64,000 nt of DNA from an uncultured bacterium (GTDB lineage Bacteria; Patescibacteriota; Minisyncoccia; Moranbacterales; GWC2-37-73): the NCBI GenBank assembly GCA_903885965.1, contig CAISKQ010000035.1, positions 3,926-67,925 on the forward strand. Direction: 5' to 3'. Below are positions 3,290 to 27,710 of the stretch, one piece after another (position 1 is the stretch's first letter; each line of letters starts with the position of its first letter). The notes beneath the pieces are model-generated. The model saw only the letters and a program-made list of their open reading frames with translations. It searched no databases and had not been told where the DNA came from. Both the position numbers and the translations under genes were made by a program.

Positions 3290-3733
3290 ATGAATGTAGA
3301 AGAATTTAGAAAAAAAATTAAAATAGATTTGAGAATAGTTGTTGATAATCAGATTTTTAAAATTGAGCAGCTAGTTAAATTTCGTTACGATGATGGTAGT
3401 TTTTATATTAAATGCTATTTACAAAACGGTTTTGTTTTGGCAGATGATTTGAATGATAATATTTTTGTATTCGTGAAAGAAATTCAAAGTGATATCCAAT
3501 TGCCTTTTTCAGAGAATTTAGAATTTGACGGAAAGAAATTTGAATTCTTGTTTGAGGCGCATGCTGTAGCTGAGGAAATCTGGGGGAAAGAACTTTTCAA
3601 AAAGAGTGAGGGAGAAAAATTTTGGGATTATAAAAGCGAGGATGAATCATATCTTAGCCTTGGTATTCACGATGAAACAGGTAAAAGGCAAGATTTTTAT
3701 GGAAAAATAATTAAGGATGTGGAGTTTTTATAA
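3290..3733 (+). CDS. Hypothetical protein
   Basis: 147 aa intact ORF; no confident family. Confidence 0.4.
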   Translation: MNVEEFRKKIKIDLRIVVDNQIFKIEQLVKFRYDDGSFYIKCYLQNGFVLADDLNDNIFVFVKEIQSDIQLPFSENLEFDGKKFEFLFEAHAVAEEIWGKELFKKSEGEKFWDYKSEDESYLSLGIHDETGKRQDFYGKIIKDVEFL

Positions 3734-3841
3734 TTTTGCTGTTTTATATTGCCATAATAGACTTAAATTGGTAAGATTGATTTATAAGAAATGTCAGCAT
3801 TAATGAATGTCATCTCGAACTCCATAGCGATGCGGCATGGT

Positions 3842-5072: not shown

Positions 5073-5115
5073 GTAATTATGTAGGTGCTAAAGTAAATTT
5101 GTAATTTGTAGAACT

Positions 5116-7533
5116 ATGAAATATTCTTACAGTTGGCTAAAAGAAATATCAGGAACAAAATTATCACCAGAAGAATTAATCCAGGGTATCACAATGCATG
5201 CGCTTGAAATTGAAGGCGTGGAAAAAGTTGGCTCAGATTTTGAAGGTGTGGTGGTGGGAGAAATCTTGGAAATATCCAAGCATCCAAATGCTGATAAACT
5301 GCAACTTACCAAAGTCAATATCGGAGACAAAGTCTTGGATATTGTTTGTGGTGCCAAAAATATTTCAGTGGGAGAAAAGGTTCCTGTGGCGCAGATTGGT
5401 TCAGTTCTGCCAGGTGATTTCAAGATCAAAGAAGCTGAAATCCGGGGTGTCAAATCCTTTGGTATGCTTTGCGCCCCAGATGAACTGGGGCTCGGCAGTG
5501 ATCATAGCGGTATTTTACTTTTGGAAAAATCTTTGAAAATTGGAACACCTCTAAGTGCATTGTTTGATGAGAAAGATCAAATTTTGGAAATTAAAGTATT
5601 GCCCGATAGGGCTCATGATGCAGTTAGTCACGTTGGGCTTGCTCGCGAAGTTGCTGCGCTTGATGGAGATATTATTGAATATGATTATGACGGCTTGAAA
5701 CTTGCGAAAAAGAAAACCTCGAGCATCACGGTTTCTATTGAAAATAAAGATTTGTGCGAGCGATATATTGCCGCAAAATTGGATAATGTAACCATTAAGC
5801 AATCTCCACAATGGATTTCAACTCGCTTGGAGAGGTGTGGAATCAGGTCAATCAACAATGTGGTTGATGTGACAAACTATGTAATGCTAGAACTTGGTCA
5901 ACCGATGCATGCATTTGATTTTGCACAAATTTCAAGCGGTGAAGTGGCGGAGATAATCATCAGGAATGCGAAAAAGGATGAAGAAATCGTGATTTTGGAT
6001 GGCAGTGTGAAAAAAATGTCCAGTGATGATGTTGTCATAGCAAACAAAACAGACGTGCTTGCGCTGGCTGGTGTTATGGGTGGCAAAAAAAGTGGAGTTA
6101 GCGAAAAAACCACGAGTATTATGCTTGAGTCAGCAACTTTCAATCCAACCTCTATTCGTAAAACAAAAAATAAGTTCACGCTCCAGACAGACGCTGCTAT
6201 GCGCTTTGAAAAAGGACTTGATCCTAATATTGCGGAAAAAGCGATGGTGCGAGCAATTGAGCTTTTAACCCACATTACTGACGCTAAACTGGCTGGAATT
6301 GTTGATGAGTATCCAACCGTTAAAAAAACTTGGACGATTAAACTTGATTTAAAATACGTAAATTCATTGCTCGGAGAAGAGATTCCTGCAAGTGTTAGCA
6401 AAAAAATTCTCACTTCGCTTGGCTGCGAGGTAAAAAACTCTGGAAAAGACTTGATAGTAACAGTTCCAACCTTTAGGCTTGATTTGCTCACGCAGGAAGA
6501 CTTGATTGAAGAAATCGGCAGAGTTTATGGTTATGAGAAAATTGTTGCAACGCCGCAAATGGTTTCCATAAAACCTCCTGTAGCTAGTGAAAAAAGAACT
6601 TTTGTCAGGAGCGTTAAAAATGTCCTGGTTGGGCTTGGATTTTCAGAAGTATACAACTATGCCTTTTATGGACGCAAAGACGCTGAGGCAGCAAAATTAC
6701 AAACATTCAAGCACTTAGAACTCGAACTCCCAATGAATTGCGAGCAGTCTATCTTGCGCGTGAGCTTGATCCCGAATTTACTGAAAAATGTACGGGAAAA
6801 CTTGAAACACACAAAGGAGATGCATATTTTTGAAATCGGAAAAGTTTTTCTGCCAAATGATGCCAAAGCTTTGCCAGCTGAAAAAAATATGCTCTGCGGC
6901 ATCGTGGTGCTTGAAAAGAAAGCAAACAAGAAAGGTGCTCAAGAAGATTTACAGCAAACTTTGTTTTTTTCGGCCAAATCCCTGGTAAACAATTTAATGA
7001 TACAGTTTGGCATAACAGATCAATATTACGCAGCCATGGAAGATGGCTTTGCACAAATTTCAAAAACTTTTTGCCATGAAGGTCGTGCCAGTGAGATTAA
7101 AATTGACGGAAGTGACCAAGCAATTGGTTGCATTGCAGAAATAAACCCGTTAGTTTTGGCTGATTTTGACGTCAGCGGCAGGGTGGCATTTTTCGAATTT
7201 GACCTTGAATTACTGCAAAACATTTCCAATGCTCAATGTGAGTTCAAATCAATTCCAAAATACCCGAATGTTATGAGGGATATTGCGATGATTGTCTCAG
7301 GAGGCCAGAGAGTGGATGATATTTTGGCTGTTATTCAAGCAGAAGGTGGAGATTTGATTGTGGATGCCGATTTGTTCGATATTTTTGATTTTGCCGACGG
7401 GACCTCGAATTATGCGTTTCATATCATGCTAAATGCTGAAAATAGGACGCTAACAAGCGAAGAAGTCGACATTATTATGAAAAAAATAGCTTCTAAATTG
7501 GAGGAAAAACTGGAAATTAAAATCAGAAAGTAG
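5116..7533 (+). CDS. pheT: Phenylalanine--tRNA ligase beta subunit
   Basis: 805 aa. N-terminal tRNA-binding domain 'KVNIGDKVLDIVCGA', B3/4 and B5 regions, and a C-terminal FDX-ACB-like domain. Immediately downstream of pheS. Confidence 0.95.
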   Translation: MKYSYSWLKEISGTKLSPEELIQGITMHALEIEGVEKVGSDFEGVVVGEILEISKHPNADKLQLTKVNIGDKVLDIVCGAKNISVGEKVPVAQIGSVLPGDFKIKEAEIRGVKSFGMLCAPDELGLGSDHSGILLLEKSLKIGTPLSALFDEKDQILEIKVLPDRAHDAVSHVGLAREVAALDGDIIEYDYDGLKLAKKKTSSITVSIENKDLCERYIAAKLDNVTIKQSPQWISTRLERCGIRSINNVVDVTNYVMLELGQPMHAFDFAQISSGEVAEIIIRNAKKDEEIVILDGSVKKMSSDDVVIANKTDVLALAGVMGGKKSGVSEKTTSIMLESATFNPTSIRKTKNKFTLQTDAAMRFEKGLDPNIAEKAMVRAIELLTHITDAKLAGIVDEYPTVKKTWTIKLDLKYVNSLLGEEIPASVSKKILTSLGCEVKNSGKDLIVTVPTFRLDLLTQEDLIEEIGRVYGYEKIVATPQMVSIKPPVASEKRTFVRSVKNVLVGLGFSEVYNYAFYGRKDAEAAKLQTFKHLELELPMNCEQSILRVSLIPNLLKNVRENLKHTKEMHIFEIGKVFLPNDAKALPAEKNMLCGIVVLEKKANKKGAQEDLQQTLFFSAKSLVNNLMIQFGITDQYYAAMEDGFAQISKTFCHEGRASEIKIDGSDQAIGCIAEINPLVLADFDVSGRVAFFEFDLELLQNISNAQCEFKSIPKYPNVMRDIAMIVSGGQRVDDILAVIQAEGGDLIVDADLFDIFDFADGTSNYAFHIMLNAENRTLTSEEVDIIMKKIASKLEEKLEIKIRK

Positions 7534-17395: not shown

Positions 17396-19129
17396 ATGGC
17401 AAAATGGCTAAGCAGAGAGCTAGTTGAGATTCCTTCTGAATTTTCACTGAAATTGCATTCCCTGGTAAAGCAAATTCTATTTTCTCGAGGACTCAAATCA
17501 GAAAAGGAGCTTCAGGCGTTCATTGCGCCAGATTATCAAACGGATTGTCTTAATCCGTTTCTTTTTTGTGAGATGGAAAAACTTATTGAAAGAATCAGGC
17601 TTGCGCGCGACCTCAAAGAAAAAGTGATAATTTTTGGCGACTATGATGCAGATGGTATCACCTCAAGTGCTATCCTGAAAGAAACTTTCAGTGAGCTTGG
17701 AGTTGACGCCGATGTCTACATCCCTGACAAGCGAACCGAAGGATATGGCCTTAATTTGCTAGCTATCGATATCTTTAAAATTGCCGGCGTGAAATTGATT
17801 ATCACTGTGGACTGTGGCATTACTAGTTTTGCTGAGACTGAAAAAGCCAAGCAGTATGGGATTGATGTCATCATTACCGACCATCATCATGTTCCAGAAA
17901 AGCTGCCAAATGCACTGGCAATTATTAATCCTCATCAGAAAAATTGTGGTTATCCATTTGAAGATTTAGCGGGAGTAGGAGTAGCTTTCAAGGTTGTGCA
18001 GGCGATTTATGAAAAATTGATGCCAGAAAAGATTGGACAGACAAAATGGATGTTGGACTTAGTTTCAATTGGAACCATAGCTGATTGCGTTCCCTTGATT
18101 GGAGAAAACAGATTATTCGTGAAGTATGGCTTAGTTGTTCTTTCGAAGACTCGCCGAGTTGGTCTTTTAGAGCTGTTTACTGTGGGTAGAATAGTTATTG
18201 ATGAATCTGCTATTCCTGATACGAAAAAAGTTTCTTTTTACATAGCGCCAAGAATAAACGCTGCAGGCAGAATCAATCATGCCAACTTGGCATACAATTT
18301 GATAGTTGAAAAAGATACGGTTCGCGCTCGAGATTTTGCCTTAGAGTTGGAAGAAAATAACATTGAGCGACAAAAGATTACGGCTGAAGTTGTCAAAGAA
18401 ATCAAGTCATTGGCTGAAAATTCTTATAAAAACAAAAAAATTATTTTTGCAATTAGCGATCATTTTCCAATTGGCGTAGTTGGCTTGGTGGCTGGAAAAA
18501 TTGCGCAAATGTTTAATAAACCGACAGCTATTTTTCAAAAGGGAACTGATGAAAGCAAGGGATCTTTTCGAAGCATTCCACAGATAAACATTATTGAATC
18601 CATCGGAAAGTGTAGTCATTTGCTGCTAAAATTTGGTGGACACAGTCAAGCCGCAGGAGTATCGGTGCGAAATGACCAAATGGAAAATTTCCAGAAGGCA
18701 TTAGAGGAAATAATTGAAAAGCAACTCGAGGGAATTGAATTAGAATCAGAAATTATTATTGATGGGCAGGTGGAAACAAAGGAAATAGGTTTCGATTTAA
18801 TCGCTGATATTGAAAAGCTTAAGCCTTTCGGAATGGGCAATGCTGAACCAATAATACTAGTAAAAAATCTAGTTATTAATGAAAAAAGATTCCTTGGATC
18901 TGAAAAGAAACATGTGAAATTCTTGCTCTCCCTAGCCGAAAAAAATTCCTCAGACAATGAAAGCATGCGAGTCTTTGAAGCGATTAGCTTTAATGGCGGT
19001 GAGAAATTTGCGTCGCTGAAAGAAAATGATCAGATTGACATTCTGTGCAACATCCAAAAGGACGACTGGAACGGGAATAGCAGAATTCAGCTTAACGTAG
19101 TTGATATGAGAATTAGCAAGATAAGTTAG
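17396..19129 (+). CDS. recJ: Single-stranded-DNA-specific exonuclease RecJ
   Basis: DHH motifs ('IIFGDYDADGITS', 'IITDHHH'), DHHA1 domain ('GGHSQAAG'), C-terminal OB-like region. Confidence 0.9.
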   Translation: MAKWLSRELVEIPSEFSLKLHSLVKQILFSRGLKSEKELQAFIAPDYQTDCLNPFLFCEMEKLIERIRLARDLKEKVIIFGDYDADGITSSAILKETFSELGVDADVYIPDKRTEGYGLNLLAIDIFKIAGVKLIITVDCGITSFAETEKAKQYGIDVIITDHHHVPEKLPNALAIINPHQKNCGYPFEDLAGVGVAFKVVQAIYEKLMPEKIGQTKWMLDLVSIGTIADCVPLIGENRLFVKYGLVVLSKTRRVGLLELFTVGRIVIDESAIPDTKKVSFYIAPRINAAGRINHANLAYNLIVEKDTVRARDFALELEENNIERQKITAEVVKEIKSLAENSYKNKKIIFAISDHFPIGVVGLVAGKIAQMFNKPTAIFQKGTDESKGSFRSIPQINIIESIGKCSHLLLKFGGHSQAAGVSVRNDQMENFQKALEEIIEKQLEGIELESEIIIDGQVETKEIGFDLIADIEKLKPFGMGNAEPIILVKNLVINEKRFLGSEKKHVKFLLSLAEKNSSDNESMRVFEAISFNGGEKFASLKENDQIDILCNIQKDDWNGNSRIQLNVVDMRISKIS

Positions 19130-19134
19130 TGGCT

Positions 19135-19170
19135 AGTTGTTTGCATAAGTTTCAAAATAAACAACTTTTT
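19135..19170 (+). terminator. Candidate terminator hairpin (AGTTGTTT / AAACAACT + TTTTT) between recJ and the glycosyltransferase
   Basis: 8 bp stem, 16 nt loop, T-run ending 2 nt before the next ATG. Confidence 0.4.
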
Positions 19171-19172
19171 CT

Positions 19173-20288
19173 ATGAAAATAGCTTTTGTTCATGATTATC
19201 TAGTACAACACGGGGGAGCCGAACGCGTCCTTGAGTGTTTTTTGGAAATTTATCCATACGCCCCGATTTATACAATCGTGCATAATAAAGAAGCTATGCA
19301 TGGTGCTTTTGAGGATAAGCGAATTTACACTTCATATTTGCAAAAAATGCCTTTTGTGAAAAATTGGCATCGAATTTTTCCATTGTTGATGCCGCCAGCC
19401 ATTGAGCAGTTTGATTTTTCCAGTTATGACGTAGTTGTTTCGGATTCTTCAAGTTATGCTAAAGGCATCATTACCCGTCCGGAAACTTTGCACATTTGCT
19501 ACATGCACACTCCGATGCGTTACGCCTGGGATGATTGTCAAAAATATACGCGAGATTTTTATTTCCCGCGTTTTGTTAAAAGCGTCATTCCATTTGCGAT
19601 GAACTATCTTCGTCTTTGGGACAGGGTTAGCGCCGACAGAGTCGATGTATTTGTAGCAAACTCAAATTTTGTGGCTAATCGAATAAAAAAATATTATCGA
19701 AAAAATGCTATCGTGATTCATCCACCTGTTGATACAAAAAGATTTTCTCCAGATGCCAGCATTGAAAAAGCTAAACCATATTTCTTGATGGTTGGCAGAC
19801 TAATCGCATATAAACGTCACGACATTACCATTAAAGCTTTTAATGAACTTGGTCTGACTTTGAAAATAATCGGACGCGGCCCGGAGCTCAAAAGACTTAA
19901 AAAAATAGCCAGACCGAATATTGAATTTTTAGGTCGAGTTGATGATGCGCAATTAAAAAAATATTATCTGGGTTGCCAAGGCGTTATTTTCCCCCAGGAG
20001 GAGGACTTTGGCATTGTGGCCATGGAAGCGCTTGCATGTGGCAAACCTCTTGTGGCATTTCGAGGAGGGGACATTCCTGAACACATGGAAGACCAAACTA
20101 TGGGCGTCTATTTTCAAGTACAAACTAGTCAAGCCATCATTGAAGCTGTGAAAAAATTTCAGACCTTATCTTTTGATCCCCAATATATTTCCAGCAAAGT
20201 CCAAAAGTTTAACCGTGAAATTTTCAAGGAAAGGATGAGGGGGATTATTGAGAACAAGCTCAGGGAGCACAAAACACGTAACGCATAA
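19173..20288 (+). CDS. Glycosyltransferase family 4 (GT-B, group 1)
   Basis: 'MKIAFVHDYLVQHGGAERV' N-terminus and a C-terminal EX7E-like region typical of GT4. Confidence 0.8.
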   Translation: MKIAFVHDYLVQHGGAERVLECFLEIYPYAPIYTIVHNKEAMHGAFEDKRIYTSYLQKMPFVKNWHRIFPLLMPPAIEQFDFSSYDVVVSDSSSYAKGIITRPETLHICYMHTPMRYAWDDCQKYTRDFYFPRFVKSVIPFAMNYLRLWDRVSADRVDVFVANSNFVANRIKKYYRKNAIVIHPPVDTKRFSPDASIEKAKPYFLMVGRLIAYKRHDITIKAFNELGLTLKIIGRGPELKRLKKIARPNIEFLGRVDDAQLKKYYLGCQGVIFPQEEDFGIVAMEALACGKPLVAFRGGDIPEHMEDQTMGVYFQVQTSQAIIEAVKKFQTLSFDPQYISSKVQKFNREIFKERMRGIIENKLREHKTRNA

Positions 20289-20299
20289 TATGAAACATG

Positions 20300-20620
20300 A
20301 AGCATGAGGAATTCAATTCCTAATGTCTAATGCTGGGCAGGAATTTTATATTTTTGCATCCCTCTCCGCACATTGTGCAGTGCGTAGGCAAAAGACGAGT
20401 GATGAGCGTTAAGAAATTTTCAGCGAGCTTTTTCAGCAGAAAAAGTGCAGCGGGAATTTTAATTGGCTTTCAAAATCTTTGATTTTGTCCAGACAATATA
20501 TACCCGGAGGGTGAAGCGAAGAGTGAAGTCTTTGCCCCAGCAACGCCTGTCCGCCTTGGGCGGGAGCACGTGTCGGGATTTCCCTGCCTGCCGGTAGGCA
20601 AGTTTTGTAACTTTTCTTCT
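20300..20620 (+). ncRNA. Candidate structured non-coding RNA or long structured 3' UTR of unknown class, ending in an intrinsic terminator
   Basis: 585 bp gene-free interval. The segment 20490-20600 is about 50% GC, against about 35% for the window, and has several local hairpins. A terminator (CCTGCC-tgcc-GGTAGG + TTTTGTAACTTTTCTTCT) lies at 20583-20620 on the plus strand. No match recognised to RNase P, tmRNA, SRP or 6S consensus. Confidence 0.3.
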
Positions 20621-20799
20621 AAAAGAAAAATTAACCCTTAATTTTGGCAAATAAAAAGAGATGGGCACACAAGCGTTAAAAATTGCTTGATTGTAGCACC
20701 CTATTATACTCCTTTTCCGCCCAAAAGTCAAGACTACCGCAAAAGCGGGGGATGGTATATGGTTAACTAAAGACAAAAGGCATTGTTATATTGATACAC

Positions 20800-20863
20800 T
20801 GTTACATTGTCAGGGATACAAAATAACAATGCGCATCTATAATAACAATATAGCAATGTAACA
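20800..20863. promoter_or_regulatory. Inverted repeat TGTTACATTG (20800-20809) / CAATGTAACA (20854-20863) plus AACAAT direct repeats, just upstream of the GT4 gene
   Basis: Perfect 10 bp arms, and each arm is itself near-palindromic. The right arm ends 11 nt before the ATG at 20874. Confidence 0.4.
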
Positions 20864-20873
20864 ATTTAGCAAT

Positions 20874-22022
20874 ATGAGAGTAGGAGTAGACATCCGTTGT
20901 TTGGTGGAGGGAAAAAATACAGGCGTTGAAGAATACACGACAAACCTTTTGCATCGTCTTTTCGAGTTGGACTCGAAAAATAGCTACGTTTTGTTCATAA
21001 ATTCTTGGCGTCAGCCAAAGGCACAACTAGGACAATTTAAAAAATACAAAAATGTCAGCATCGGGCAATTTCACATTCCAAACAAACTTTTGAACCTGAG
21101 TTTGTGGTATTTTCATTGGCCTCACATCGACAAAATGCTTGGTGGCGTCGACACTTTTTGGATGCCAAATATCAATTTTGTGGCACTTTCCAACGAGGTT
21201 AAGTTTGTTTTAACTATCCATGATCTTTCGTTTGAAATTTTTTCGCAGACTTTTTCGCTCAAACGCAGACTTTGGCATCATTTCATCAATACGAGAGCTC
21301 TTTGCAAACGAGCAGACAAAATTATCGCTGTTTCTGATTCTTCCAAAAATGATATTGTTAGTTATTATGGCATTGATCAGACAAAAATTGAACGTATTTA
21401 TAATGCGGTGTCTGAAGATGTTGGACAATTGGATCGCAATGACCCACATTTAATGGCAGTGAAGGAGAAATATCATCTTCCGTTTAATTTTATTTTTTAT
21501 CTTGGTACAGTTGAACCACGCAAAAATATTCCCGCTATTGTAGCAGCCTTTGACCAGCTAAAATCTTTGCAAAATCCCCAATTAGAAAAATTCAAATTGG
21601 TAATCGCAGGGGGAAAGGGGTGGGGAGTTGAAAAAATTCTTTTCAAAATGCGCAACGCCAAGAGCACAAGCGACATAATTTTTACTAGTTGCGTTACCAA
21701 TGAGGATAAAGCGGCTGTGTATACCTTGGCGTCACTCTTTGTGTATCCTTCATTTTTTGAAGGCTTTGGTATTCCCGTTTTAGAAGCGATGCGTTGCGGG
21801 GTGCCAGTAATAACTTCAAATGTCTCCTCGCTGCCGGAAGTTGTTGGAGATGGCGCAATTATGATTAATCCTGACAATCCGAACGAGCTATTCTTAGCCA
21901 TGAAGGAGTTATTACTAGACAGGAATCTATATGAACAAGTAAAAAATAAGGGCATGCGTCAATCAATCAGGTTTAATTGGGTGACTTCAGCCCGGGAATT
22001 GTTGGTAATTTTGGGTAAATAG
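20874..22022 (+). CDS. Glycosyltransferase family 4
   Basis: GT4 GT-B fold signatures ('FYLGTVEPRKN', 'PSFFEGFGIPVLEAMRCGVPVI'). Confidence 0.8.
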   Translation: MRVGVDIRCLVEGKNTGVEEYTTNLLHRLFELDSKNSYVLFINSWRQPKAQLGQFKKYKNVSIGQFHIPNKLLNLSLWYFHWPHIDKMLGGVDTFWMPNINFVALSNEVKFVLTIHDLSFEIFSQTFSLKRRLWHHFINTRALCKRADKIIAVSDSSKNDIVSYYGIDQTKIERIYNAVSEDVGQLDRNDPHLMAVKEKYHLPFNFIFYLGTVEPRKNIPAIVAAFDQLKSLQNPQLEKFKLVIAGGKGWGVEKILFKMRNAKSTSDIIFTSCVTNEDKAAVYTLASLFVYPSFFEGFGIPVLEAMRCGVPVITSNVSSLPEVVGDGAIMINPDNPNELFLAMKELLLDRNLYEQVKNKGMRQSIRFNWVTSARELLVILGK

Positions 22023-22057
22023 ATTGATTTTTCCTATATTTGTGCTAAAGTTGAATC

Positions 22058-22597
22058 ATGCAAAAAAAGAAAATATATATTGAAATACAAATTCCAGACC
22101 CTGTTAAGCGTCGTTTGGCGAAAAAAATTGAGATGTGGGGTGATTTGCCAATCAAGTGGAACAAAGAGGATAGTCTGCATTTGACTGTTTCTTTTGTTGG
22201 CTATGTAGATGAAAGTGTCATTCCGGAAATCTGTGCAAAGGTTAGTGAAGCAGTTGAAAACATTGAATCTTTTGATTTAGAGCTGACAAAAATTGTGCTA
22301 AGTCCAGATATTAATGACCCCAGGATGGTTATTCTTAGTGGTGAGGTTAGCAATGAGCTTGGGAATTTACATGGGGCTGTTCAAGACGCACTCGGCATGA
22401 AAACGCAGCAATACAAGCAATTTAGACCAAATTTAATGCTTGGAAAAATCAGAAAAGAAAAATGGGATCAACTTGCTGAAAAACCGGTTTTTGATGAAAA
22501 AGTTCACATTATTGTCCCAGTTGACTATGTGAGTGTAATGGAAAGCAAGGGCGGTGGCGCAGCATATGTTTCACTCGAGGATTGCCCATTAGGATAG
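22058..22597 (+). CDS. 2H phosphoesterase superfamily (LigT/ThpR-like) protein
   Basis: First H-x-T-x motif 'LHLTVSFVG' is present. A canonical second HxT motif was not found by eye, so activity and family are uncertain. Confidence 0.45.
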   Translation: MQKKKIYIEIQIPDPVKRRLAKKIEMWGDLPIKWNKEDSLHLTVSFVGYVDESVIPEICAKVSEAVENIESFDLELTKIVLSPDINDPRMVILSGEVSNELGNLHGAVQDALGMKTQQYKQFRPNLMLGKIRKEKWDQLAEKPVFDEKVHIIVPVDYVSVMESKGGGAAYVSLEDCPLG

Positions 22598-26429: not shown

Positions 26430-26480
26430 GCGGATGGTACTTTATATATATGACAGTCTTTTGATAATTAGTTATTTTAA

Positions 26481-26508
26481 AATACCCAATATGCTTGGGT
26501 ATTTTTTG
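26481..26508 (+). terminator. Rho-independent terminator (AATACCCAA-tatgc-TTGGGTATT + TTTTTT)
   Basis: 9 bp perfect stem, 5 nt loop, T-run. Confidence 0.65.
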
Positions 26509-27323
26509 TTGTCACATTTTTAGATGTAAAAGGTTGTGCGACACTAAAGTGGGTAAGTCATTGAGAAGAGGTGGTTGTATTTTCTGAATCCTAATCATGG
26601 CCGTAAGTTGCATTTGAAAGCGGTATTAATTTGAGATTTCCAATTGCTTTGATATGTGCTTAATTAAATCTATCATGCGCATATGTAAATTGGATTTTGT
26701 CGAAAAATATTTTTTTTAAAAATAATTATAAATATAATTACAAATTTGAATTTCATTGGCAAAATTTTAGATGATCCAAATCATTGAATTAGCTATATAT
26801 TTATCCTTAGAATAGCTTTTGCATAAAATGTGATACTTGAGTACCAAAAATGAATTATATGTCAGCAAAGGGTCAATATTTGGACCAAAAATAGCTAAAA
26901 ATCACCCAAAAAGACGCTCAAAATAATGGCTTATCTGAGCCAAAAAACGACGCTCAAAATTGACCTGCAAGGGGCCTTGGATTGAGAAGTGATACACTTA
27001 TACCACTACATATGGCTTATTTAAAGCTCAATTTTGGCCTAGGCATAATATTGATAAAAATATAAAAAGAAAGGGATATAGGTTAAGGAAATAAATAGAA
27101 AGCGAGCTAAATCTGAACTATTAATGGGTATGTAGGTGAGTGGGTAGTTACTGATGTATAAGTAGCTATATTATTGTAAACAGTTAAAGCTTCGAAGATG
27201 TGGTAGCATCTGTAAAATTGAATAATGCTTAGTAGGGACGCAGTTAAATTAATACTATGTCGTGAAAGATATATTGTGCGACGTTGTCTATAAAAACAAA
27301 ATAACAGTCACCTAACCCATTAG

Positions 27324-27710
27324 TTATTTTTTGTCTTGATAATTTTTAATGGCGGCATGCAAAGCATCAGCGGCAAGGTTACTGCAATGCATTTTTGCCG
27401 ACGGAAGACCACCCAACTCTTCAGCAACGCTTTTATTGGTGATGGCAAGTGCTTGCGAAATTGTCTTTCCTTTTGCTAGATCAGTAGTCATTGAGGAGGT
27501 TGAAATTGCTGCTCCACAGCCTAGTGTTTCAAATTTAACATCTTTAATTATTTCTTGCCCTTTTTTGTCTTTTTTAACCTTAATATAAAGACGCATAATG
27601 TCTCCACATTTTGGATTACCGACGGTTCCAATGCCATCAGCATTTTTAATTTTTCCCTGATTGTGAGGACGCGTAAAGTGCTCCATCACTTTTTTGGTGT
27701 ATTTTTGCAT
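27324..27710 (-). CDS. Fe-S cluster assembly scaffold protein (IscU/NifU N-terminal domain family)
   Basis: Three conserved Cys in 'NPKCGD', 'LGCGAAI' and 'HCS'. Confidence 0.85.
   Translation of the reverse strand: MQKYTKKVMEHFTRPHNQGKIKNADGIGTVGNPKCGDIMRLYIKVKKDKKGQEIIKDVKFETLGCGAAISTSSMTTDLAKGKTISQALAITNKSVAEELGGLPSAKMHCSNLAADALHAAIKNYQDKK

Follow-up and report, generated by a model that had tools for sequence, protein, structure and literature searches.

A dispersed, structured intergenic element of Moranbacteria and its copy behind a glycosyltransferase gene

What occupies the gap between two GT4 glycosyltransferase genes in a 64,000-nucleotide stretch of DNA (the window) from an uncultured Moranbacterales bacterium, and is it an RNA peculiar to this locus? 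Bacteria of the Candidate Phyla Radiation (CPR; Patescibacteria) have very small genomes that leave little room for spare DNA, and to our knowledge almost nothing is known about their noncoding RNAs. A first-pass annotation had flagged positions 20300-20620 of the window, in a 585-bp spacer without a credible open reading frame (ORF), as a GC-rich, terminator-capped candidate structured RNA of unrecognized class or, alternatively, as a long structured 3′ untranslated region (UTR) of the upstream gene. Its description of the spacer was accurate. Both neighbors are GT4 genes by Pfam, and the interval 20289-20873 contains short ORFs only (36-105 aa over the flagged region). The GC content peaks at 0.64 in 20500-20599 against ∼0.35-0.40 in the surroundings, and a terminator scan scored a terminator-like hairpin with a T-run on the plus strand at 20583-20600 (tail CAAGTTTTGT). 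Moreover, folding of the plus strand was better than that of shuffled sequences (z = -3.6), with none of 100 shuffles equally good.

We found that the flagged stretch belongs to a family of long, irregular hairpins, which is previously undescribed within Rfam 15 and the literature searched. It is not a single-locus RNA: the orthologous GT4 loci of the four closest relatives (L001-L004) are without the element, and other copies lie beside unrelated genes. It is mostly the less GC-rich part of the stretch (20366-20460 plus 20515-20544 and 20565-20576) that forms the conserved structure. The GC-rich core and the terminator cap that had served as cues are real, but they stem from modules inserted in this copy rather than from conserved structure. 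We are highly confident that the copy in the window is a real, selected, and structured member of this family.

Copies of the element and their distribution

We collected 80 syntenic loci from GTDB genomes by way of the upstream GT4 protein, mostly from Candidatus Moraniibacteriota (Moranbacteria, CPR); the closest GT4 relatives have 84-90% protein identity. When the spacer was compared with these loci using blastn and nhmmer, the only shared sequences were a minus-strand promoter block and the flank behind the GT4 stop codon, and no counterpart of the flagged region was found at the orthologous site, even in L001-L004. A reading of the region as unconserved filler, drawn from this synteny search, was reversed on finding dispersed copies. 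Exact look-ups of the two GT4 proteins showed that, in independent assemblies of the same organism, contigs are interrupted within the element: L081 and L082 stop at window position 20406, and L084 begins at 20431. Contig L083 (ENA ERZ18648719 scaffold_61262) equals the window up to 20461 and then runs into a shorter GC-rich version and the unrelated gene tsaE.

A 20-mer common to the window and L083, GAAGTCTTTGCCNCAGCAAC, was scanned against JGI metagenome contigs and returned 27 loci, of which 3 were chance matches in coding DNA and 24 carried a conserved element of ∼150-200 nt, sometimes two or three times per contig (three at most). Profile and covariance-model searches added further copies, including divergent ones in L039 and L034 and second copies in L094 and L091, for a family total of ∼28 copies among the fetched Moranbacteria contigs. 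The GC content of the unit is 39-50%. In the window, the family profile matched 20352-20636 (nhmmer, E = 1.3e-51), and a covariance model built from other copies (R1) scored the copy at 99.1 bits (E = 4.7e-23); no further copy was found in the 64 kb, even with filters off. The extent proposed at first, 20300-20620, thus picked out the right region, and the conserved unit is slightly shifted, to 20349-20637. Looking for conservation in relatives, as had been recommended, gave a divided answer: none at the orthologous GT4 sites of L001-L004 and dispersed, covarying copies beside unrelated genes.

The 5′ half of the element in L083 is that of the window copy, whereas its 3′ half is that of a paralogue next to tsaE, as found in L102. 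This contig is probably a repeat-induced assembly chimera, the alternative being a real rearrangement between copies. Such a chimera also explains why contigs break inside the element, and the element thereby accounts for assembly breaks at loci of this kind. Two “compensatory SNPs” in L083, taken at one point as covariation within a strain, were reread as paralogue differences in a hybrid contig. In two other contigs, a canonical and a divergent copy lie head to head on opposite strands, with their 5′ ends 30-40 nt apart (L086:4035-4437 and L091:3684-4013).

This distribution bears directly on whether the element is a regulatory 3′ UTR or riboswitch-like structure specific to the GT4 operon. 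The copy in the window is co-oriented with the GT4 gene and lies directly behind it, and the divergent copies in L034 and L039 also adjoin GT4 orthologues. However, the element is absent at the same spot in the four closest and 76 other Moranbacteria GT4 loci, except for the L034 and L039 copies, which are upstream and antisense, and most copies flank unrelated genes (rpsI, dnaK, dnaJ, cysS, ileS, tsaE, obg, recO, rplY, and atpG). A GT4-specific function is largely refuted by this distribution, and we consider it very improbable.

The rod and the evidence for its fold

The element is one long irregular hairpin, or rod, composed of helices P1, P1b, P1c, and P2, a GA-rich internal loop, and helices P3 and P4. 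The alignment, RNAalifold, single-copy minimum free energy (MFE) folds, and inspection of divergent copies agree on this single rod. P1 is CCGCAC/GUGCGG in long forms and a 13-25 bp AU-rich helix in short forms; its sequence is free provided that it pairs, and arms as different as CCGCAC, GCAC, GUAC, GUGCC, GUACC, and long AU-rich extensions all keep complementarity. It is followed by P1b (UGC/GCA) and a 4x4 internal loop, P1c (UGC/GCA) and a 3x3 loop (GUA/CCA), and P2 (GGCAAA[A]GAC/GUCUUUGCC). The GA-rich loop places GAnUGAUGAGCGUAA opposite AGCGAAGAGUGAA, with a 2-bp mini-helix, and leads to P3 (AAAAUUUC/GGAAUUUU) and to P4, a variable hairpin, mostly CAGCAG-capped, whose stem may be CUUUGUC/GACAAAG, CCGUC/GACG, or CGCC/GGCG and which is missing in L092 and L103. 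The core sequence is highly conserved, unpaired nucleotides included. By-eye comparison of the GA-rich loop with the K-turn, loop E, and hammerhead motifs gave no clean fit.

Long forms are preceded by a conserved pyrimidine-rich leader with repeated YGYAUU units and have an added 3′ AU-rich hairpin (UAACUUUUCU-auua-AGAAAAGUUA). This hairpin is kept in all long-form copies, occurs only within family copies, and covaries or is extended in L039 and L103; the short-form subfamily lacks it. All insertions are located in loops, bulges, junctions, or linkers. Beyond the modules of the window copy, L090 has a hairpin inserted at the P2 bulge and L102 one within the loop of its 3′ hairpin.

Covariation was measured against a 32-pair structure in a structure-blind MAFFT alignment of 16 sequences (A2). 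In this alignment, 96.7% of cells were paired, compared with 29-48% in slid controls; nine pairs had changes on both sides, and the covariation score was 0.252 vs. 0.128 in shuffles. None of 500 shuffles attained the observed values. Covariance model R1, which was built from A2, found no copy in L001-L004 and recovered the divergent L034, L039, and second L091 copies. Across a wider alignment of 27 distinct sequences, 19 of the 32 pairs were changed on both sides and 93.5% of cells were paired, figures to be read with the provisos that alignment A3 was fitted to the model and that its sequences are related to each other.

Individual helices were changed in ways that preserve pairing. P1b and P1c show compensatory swaps of U-A to A-U in L103 and of G-C to A-U in the divergent L091 copy. 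In P2, the second L094 copy has CAC/GUG in place of GAC/GUC, the divergent L091 copy has GCGC/GCGC, and L039 has UUC/GAA, while in L034 the helix reads CCAAAUUUU/GAAAUUUGG, with its GG/CC end inverted. P3 has an A-U to G-C swap in L111 and reads CUCC/GGAG in L039. In both L034 and L039, moreover, the 7x7 noncanonical stretch of the GA-rich loop is exchanged for a 6-bp Watson-Crick helix of unrelated sequence (GCUUUU/AAAAGC and GCGGAC/GUCCGC). RNAalifold had also offered a local P2-like hairpin, GCGAAGA/UCUUUGC, which we rejected in favor of the long-range P2 because in the second L094 copy a C-to-G change disrupts the local hairpin, whereas in the long-range helix it is matched by a compensatory change.

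G.U cells outnumber A.C cells by 67 to 13, and the fold is ∼11 kcal/mol more stable on the plus strand than on its complement (-59.3 vs. -48.4 kcal/mol), both of which point to the window’s plus strand as the folded strand. Compensatory changes beyond the controls together with the excess of G.U over A.C are the generic marks of a conserved structured RNA, found here in related sequences that were retrieved through the 20-mer and, in A3, fitted to the model.

Selection on the element is visible where copies are orthologous. Those after rpsI (L100 and L110) share 84% identity, compared with 71-78% for the flanking coding DNA; for the pair behind an HI0933-like gene (L094 and L087), the element reaches 79%, compared with 78-83% for coding DNA. 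Because neutral intergenic DNA would be unalignable at that distance, the core is under purifying selection and the orthologous copies are vertically inherited; the absence at the orthologous site in L001-L004 indicates that copies are gained or lost as well. These data also dispose of the notion of a decayed gene remnant or chance GC-rich filler without selected structure. ORFs of 36-105 aa do overlap the region, and the intergenic DNA at the locus is highly variable among relatives. However, all six frames contain stops, the frames differ between copies, and the longest ORF (105 aa, 20459-20776 on the minus strand) has no Pfam match and crosses a promoter and a terminator. With covariation and conservation at orthologous sites against it as well, this explanation is refuted, and we give it virtually no weight.

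The window copy is a long form with three inserted modules (Table 1). Module A is confined to the window, L102, L111, and the divergent copy of L086 and was never seen outside a family copy; in L086, the same 53-nt module is thus shared with the window copy. A module related to B is inserted at the same site in L093 only, and module C is common to L093 only, L111 having a different strong hairpin at that place. On the transcribed strand, module C has a GC-rich stem-loop with a U-run behind it and is, by a consensus scan, a predicted intrinsic terminator. Module B contributes to the GC peak, and modules B and C together account for both that peak and the terminator-like cap.

The hairpins named by the first-pass annotation fared unequally against this fold. 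The pairing of GCTTTTTC with GAAAAAG (20427-20447) is a genuine, covarying family helix and corresponds to P4. CGCC-ttg-GGCG (20553-20563) and the terminator hairpin are present, but they lie within inserted modules found in few copies. The palindrome AGGAATT-c-AATTCCT (20309-20323) is also present, but it falls outside the element, in the flank behind the GT4 stop codon that is common to relatives. Only the CGCAC..GTGCG pairing was unsupported, as CCGCAC instead forms P1 with GUGUCGG.

Table 1. Coordinates of the element and of other features in the spacer (window positions)
Feature	Position	Strand	Basis or remark
Whole element copy: 5′ leader, rod, three inserted modules, 3′ AU-rich hairpin	20349-20637	+	Profile and covariance model
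P1, 5′ strand, CCGCAC	20366-20371	+	Closing helix; pairs with 20570-20576; six pairs changed on both sides
P1b, 5′ strand, UGU	20374-20376	+	Pairs with GCA 20566-20568; RNAalifold and single-copy MFE folds
P1c, 5′ strand, UGC	20381-20383	+	Pairs with GCA 20540-20542; RNAalifold and single-copy MFE folds
P2, 5′ strand, GGCAAAAGAC, one bulged A	20387-20396	+	Pairs with 20528-20536; covaries
GA-rich internal loop, 5′ side, GAGUGAUGAGCGUUAA	20397-20412	+	Sequence nearly invariant; faces 20515-20527
2-bp mini-helix within GA-rich loop	G20406-C20517, C20407-G20516	+	G-C to A-U swap in L101
P3, 5′ strand, GAAAUUUU	20413-20420	+	Pairs with 20453-20460
P4 terminal hairpin, GAGCUUUUU-CAGCAG-AAAAAGUGC	20425-20448	+	Stem sequence varies, pairing kept
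P3, 3′ strand	20453-20460	+	Partner of 20413-20420
Inserted module A, ∼53 nt, three small hairpins	20461-20514	+	Junction between P3 and GA-rich loop
GA-rich internal loop, 3′ side, AGCGAAGAGUGAA	20515-20527	+	Faces 20397-20412
P2, 3′ strand, GUCUUUGCC	20528-20536	+	Partner of 20387-20396
Inserted module B, GC hairpin CCGCC-uug-GGCGG	20545-20564	+	In 4x4 internal loop between P1b and P1c
P1, 3′ strand, GUGUCGG, one bulged U	20570-20576	+	Partner of 20366-20371
Inserted module C, GC hairpin GCCUGCC-GGUAGGC then U-rich tract, terminator-like	20583-20609	+	Inserted block 20583-20602
3′ AU-rich hairpin, UAACUUUUCUU-cuaa-AAGAAAAAUUA, one C.A mismatch in this copy	20603-20637	+	Long-form subfamily feature
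Hairpin and T-run, terminator of a small minus-strand unit convergent on the element	20645-20696	-	Common to L002
Promoter TTGACT-17-TATAAT, conserved spacer	20703-20731	-	11/12 consensus matches
Upstream GT4 glycosyltransferase gene	19173-20288	+	Pfam Glycos_transf_1 and Glyco_transf_4; same orientation as element
Second GT4 glycosyltransferase gene	20874-22022	+	Pfam

Genomic setting and possible roles

The genes next to the copies are unrelated housekeeping genes without a common theme: besides those named above, they include nusA, the HI0933-like gene, and others. The downstream gene is convergent on the element in 20 of the 24 copies for which one could be called; the four exceptions all have a co-oriented upstream gene, and every copy faces at least one gene 3′ end. 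No copy lies between two divergent gene starts. Many adjoin the terminator of the convergent neighbor, which is often bidirectional, and five such terminators have T-runs on both sides. The window copy and L111, which have no convergent neighbor gene, carry a terminator-like hairpin of their own, as does L093, which has one. Among the 43 neighboring proteins scanned, there was no transposase, reverse transcriptase, Cas protein, or mobile-element nuclease; a retron noncoding RNA was rejected on the absence of a reverse transcriptase from this set.

We propose that the element acts as RNA. At the GT4 locus, it would form the tail of the GT4 transcript and end at the module-borne terminator (20585-20609). 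The original suggestion of a long structured 3′ UTR fits this locus, where the element is co-oriented with the gene and lies 60 nt past its stop codon, with no promoter or terminator called in between. At other loci, the RNA would arise by read-through or from weak, unrecognized promoters and would end at the neighbor’s bidirectional terminator. The folded rod, probably protein-bound at the GA-rich loop, would then set or protect the 3′ ends of RNAs or serve as an insulator between convergent transcription units. Three features suggest this role: the copies are always associated with gene 3′ ends, they share or have acquired terminators, and their GA-rich loop, a likely protein site, is conserved. 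ERIC, REP, and Correia-type intergenic hairpins act comparably in other bacteria (PMC3184786). Family membership combined with such a mechanism is the best explanation as a whole, although we would put it slightly below an even chance; the 3′-end or insulator mechanism taken by itself is tentative.

Several observations weigh against this proposal. No sigma-70-type promoter was found consistently, or at a fixed distance, upstream of the copies. Nine copies have a divergent upstream gene, so that read-through is unable to explain transcription of the folded strand there, and in the second L094 copy, the terminator of the upstream gene adjoins P1, which leaves no room for a promoter. The strand asymmetry of the fold is no proof of RNA, as single-stranded DNA likewise tolerates G.T pairs. 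The closest relatives, L001-L004, lack the element at the orthologous site, a turnover like that of a mobile repeat. Finally, the family alignment is biased toward copies with the exact 20-mer through which they were discovered.

The same terminators are compatible with stand-alone small-RNA (sRNA) genes that act in trans, as regulators or as the RNA of a ribonucleoprotein, each with its own promoter and a shared bidirectional or own terminator. In most copies, the folded strand heads to the terminator of the convergent neighbor, and the five terminators with T-runs on both sides, the three copies with a terminator-like hairpin of their own, the highly conserved core with its unpaired nucleotides, and the YGYAUU-repeat leader of the long forms would all suit such genes. 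However, a consensus promoter at a fixed distance is lacking, and the second L094 copy begins right after an upstream terminator. Nor is there an obvious single-stranded seed region, since the RNA is almost entirely rod. On balance, we regard independent sRNA genes as unlikely.

A different possibility is that the element is a selfish, nonautonomous mobile DNA repeat. Its hairpin would then be important in single-stranded DNA, for example while an enzyme encoded elsewhere transposes or recombines the repeat, and the repeat would be tolerated only in harmless spots behind genes. The family has many intergenic copies with presence/absence differences between relatives, as do miniature inverted-repeat transposable elements (MITEs), and the window copy has no counterpart at the same site in L001-L004. 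Several near-identical copies occur per contig and across samples; they never lie between divergent promoters and have no promoter of their own; and in L100 and L034, they share intergenic spots with a second repeat family. The assembly breaks, the probable origin of the hybrid contig L083, and the G.U bias, which equally fits G.T pairs in single-stranded DNA, are also in keeping with a mobile repeat.

Other evidence speaks against mobility of this kind. The P1 arms differ between copies, and there are no conserved terminal inverted repeats. No shared or duplicated flank motif was found outside the longest possible P1 in 16 copies, although without an exact empty site for comparison a very short target duplication may have been missed. 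No transposase, reverse transcriptase, or nuclease gene lies beside any of the ∼28 copies, and a scan of viral contigs with two core patterns gave no match. Orientation relative to local GC skew shows no significant bias (15 against 7). Orthologous copies are conserved at least as well as the flanking coding DNA, and internal helices are changed by compensatory substitution, which implies that the fold has long been under selection and does not merely reflect recent copying. A purely selfish repeat is therefore an explanation that we take seriously but think fairly improbable. We attach similarly low probability to a third option, a new class of conserved, multicopy structured RNA specific to a lineage within the CPR, which might be the RNA subunit or decoy of a GA-loop-binding protein or a host-selected element that spreads without classical transposon ends (inverted repeats, target duplication, or a nearby enzyme gene).

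Beyond the element, the spacer contains a convergent minus-strand unit. Its strong promoter, as a 29-mer with up to five mismatches, recurs in 11 related loci before different small ORFs or before nothing. The block, with the spacer TTGACTTTTKGGYGRAAAAGGAGTATAAT, spans 20703-20765 of the window on the minus strand and is found in L001-L004, L006, L008-L010, L012, L018, and L059, mostly just behind the GT4 gene and directed back toward it. Its cargo varies (an ORF of 86 aa in L001, a membrane-like ORF of 106 aa in L008, 320 aa in L010, and 188 aa in L059), with a terminator only in the window, L006, and L012. In L002, ∼150 nt of extra sequence separate the promoter from the terminator hairpin. 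The arrangement looks like an expression site that stays in place while the small genes behind it are exchanged, and judged from these sequence comparisons, the GT4 spacer is a variable spot.

Short repeats flank the element on both sides. Behind the GT4 stop codon, 7-nt tandem units (CATGRAA, then TCTAATG) flank the AGGAATT-c-AATTCCT palindrome in the window (20296-20332), in L001 (∼5125-5175), and in L003/L004 (∼5110-5215). Their number varies among relatives, and 7-nt tandem repeats of other sequence occur near copies in L089, L094, L102, and L105. Toward the second GT4 gene, units with an 8-nt period (TAACAAT/TAGCAAT; window 20780-20873) reach the start codon, with inverted copies ATTGTTATATTG 40-90 nt upstream; similar units occur in L003/L004 (∼5440-5520) and upstream of the L090 copy. 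No Shine-Dalgarno sequence is visible before the second GT4 gene, and the units could serve as a binding array for a regulator or form an unusual region of translation initiation.

The same genomes also contain the second small dispersed repeat (..GGATTGC..ATGATTACATNCTCGCAATGACAAAT..), which is unrelated to the rod element, at L002:5140-5245, L098:2746-2780 and 3512-3549, L089:9716-9742, L100:9793-9813, and L034 ∼3700-3760. This repeat lies directly beside the rod element in L100 and L034 and inside the variable spacer behind the GT4 gene in L002. On a larger scale, the sizeable ORFs of the window all use the plus strand as far as 26429, and nearly all of those from 27324 onward use the minus strand, so that the two blocks converge at ∼26430-27324. 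The cumulative GC skew rises on the plus strand in the profiled part (18500-22500). This switch may mark a terminus of replication or the boundary of an inversion.

Comparison with known RNAs and repeats

At the gathering threshold, all 4227 models of Rfam 15, including those for 6S, signal recognition particle, RNase P, and transfer-messenger RNA (tmRNA), miss the stretch, a check that the first-pass annotation had itself named; no tRNA or tmRNA gene was found in the window. Twelve family loci gave tRNAs only. With E values up to 10, the window interval and the canonical copy returned weak matches to eukaryotic microRNAs, small nucleolar RNAs, long noncoding RNAs, and unrelated sRNAs, far below gathering, and short and divergent copies gave nothing with E values up to 1. 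As a positive control, a bacterial class A RNase P RNA was found in L039 (1578-1951 on the plus strand; 104.5 bits), ∼1.5 kb away from the divergent copy of the element; the Rfam models are thus effective on these genomes. The literature searched on structured RNAs or repeats of Moranbacteria, Patescibacteria, Parcubacteria, or the CPR yielded no description of the element. The absence of an Rfam match, together with the covariation-backed family fold, supports the original claim of a structured RNA of unrecognized class. A repeated, strongly structured, and selected element that current RNA models miss is a candidate new RNA family. Its covariance model is ready for annotating Moranbacteria and other CPR genomes, and the element offers a testable handle on how transcript ends are shaped, or how small repeats move, in these bacteria.

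Small, multicopy RNA families offer one comparison. Like multicopy sRNA families and rod-shaped RNAs such as 6S RNA, the element is ∼150-200 nt long, is closed by a stem of its 5′ and 3′ ends, has conserved loops in a rod and several paralogues per genome, and shares terminators with neighboring genes. Unlike them, it gives no match to the 6S model or any other Rfam model (E up to 10) and has neither a large central bubble nor a recognizable promoter, and its copy number and presence/absence variation are higher than is usual for genes of this kind. Nonautonomous derivatives of IS200/IS605 insertion sequences (PATEs) and omega RNA resemble it in their strand-specific hairpins, in the absence of inverted repeats and target duplication, and in being ORF-less and ∼150-200 nt long. 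However, the element lacks similar subterminal hairpins at both ends, having a single 3′ hairpin in long forms only; no tnpA, tnpB, or iscB lies next to any copy, and there was no match to whatever transposon guide-RNA families Rfam holds.

The proteobacterial REP/BIME repeats (background and PMC3184786) are likewise extragenic, located behind genes or between convergent genes, mosaic and modular, and built of orientation-specific hairpins, and roles in mRNA 3′-end protection and termination have been proposed for them. REP units are GC-rich palindromes of 20-40 nt, whereas the rod described here measures 150-200 nt and contains several conserved loops, and no RAYT-type transposase was seen next to any copy. 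ERIC and other MITE-type intergenic repeats (Correia/nemis, RUP, and BOX; reviewed in PMC3184786) share more with it: an intergenic, long imperfect hairpin of ∼100-200 nt, many copies per genome, variants with internal insertions, a frequent position at gene 3′ ends, and a tendency to promote rearrangements and break assemblies. These repeats are often cotranscribed with the adjacent gene and can alter mRNA stability through RNase E or RNase III (PMC3184786). In contrast to ERIC and Correia MITEs, the element has no conserved terminal inverted repeats, its closing helix differing and covarying instead, no TA or other target duplication, and no related known insertion sequence, and it has noncanonical GA-rich conserved loops, conservation between orthologs at or above the level of coding DNA, and a CPR host. 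Taken together, the comparison suggests that, in the way it works, the element is most like the ERIC- and REP-type intergenic hairpins.

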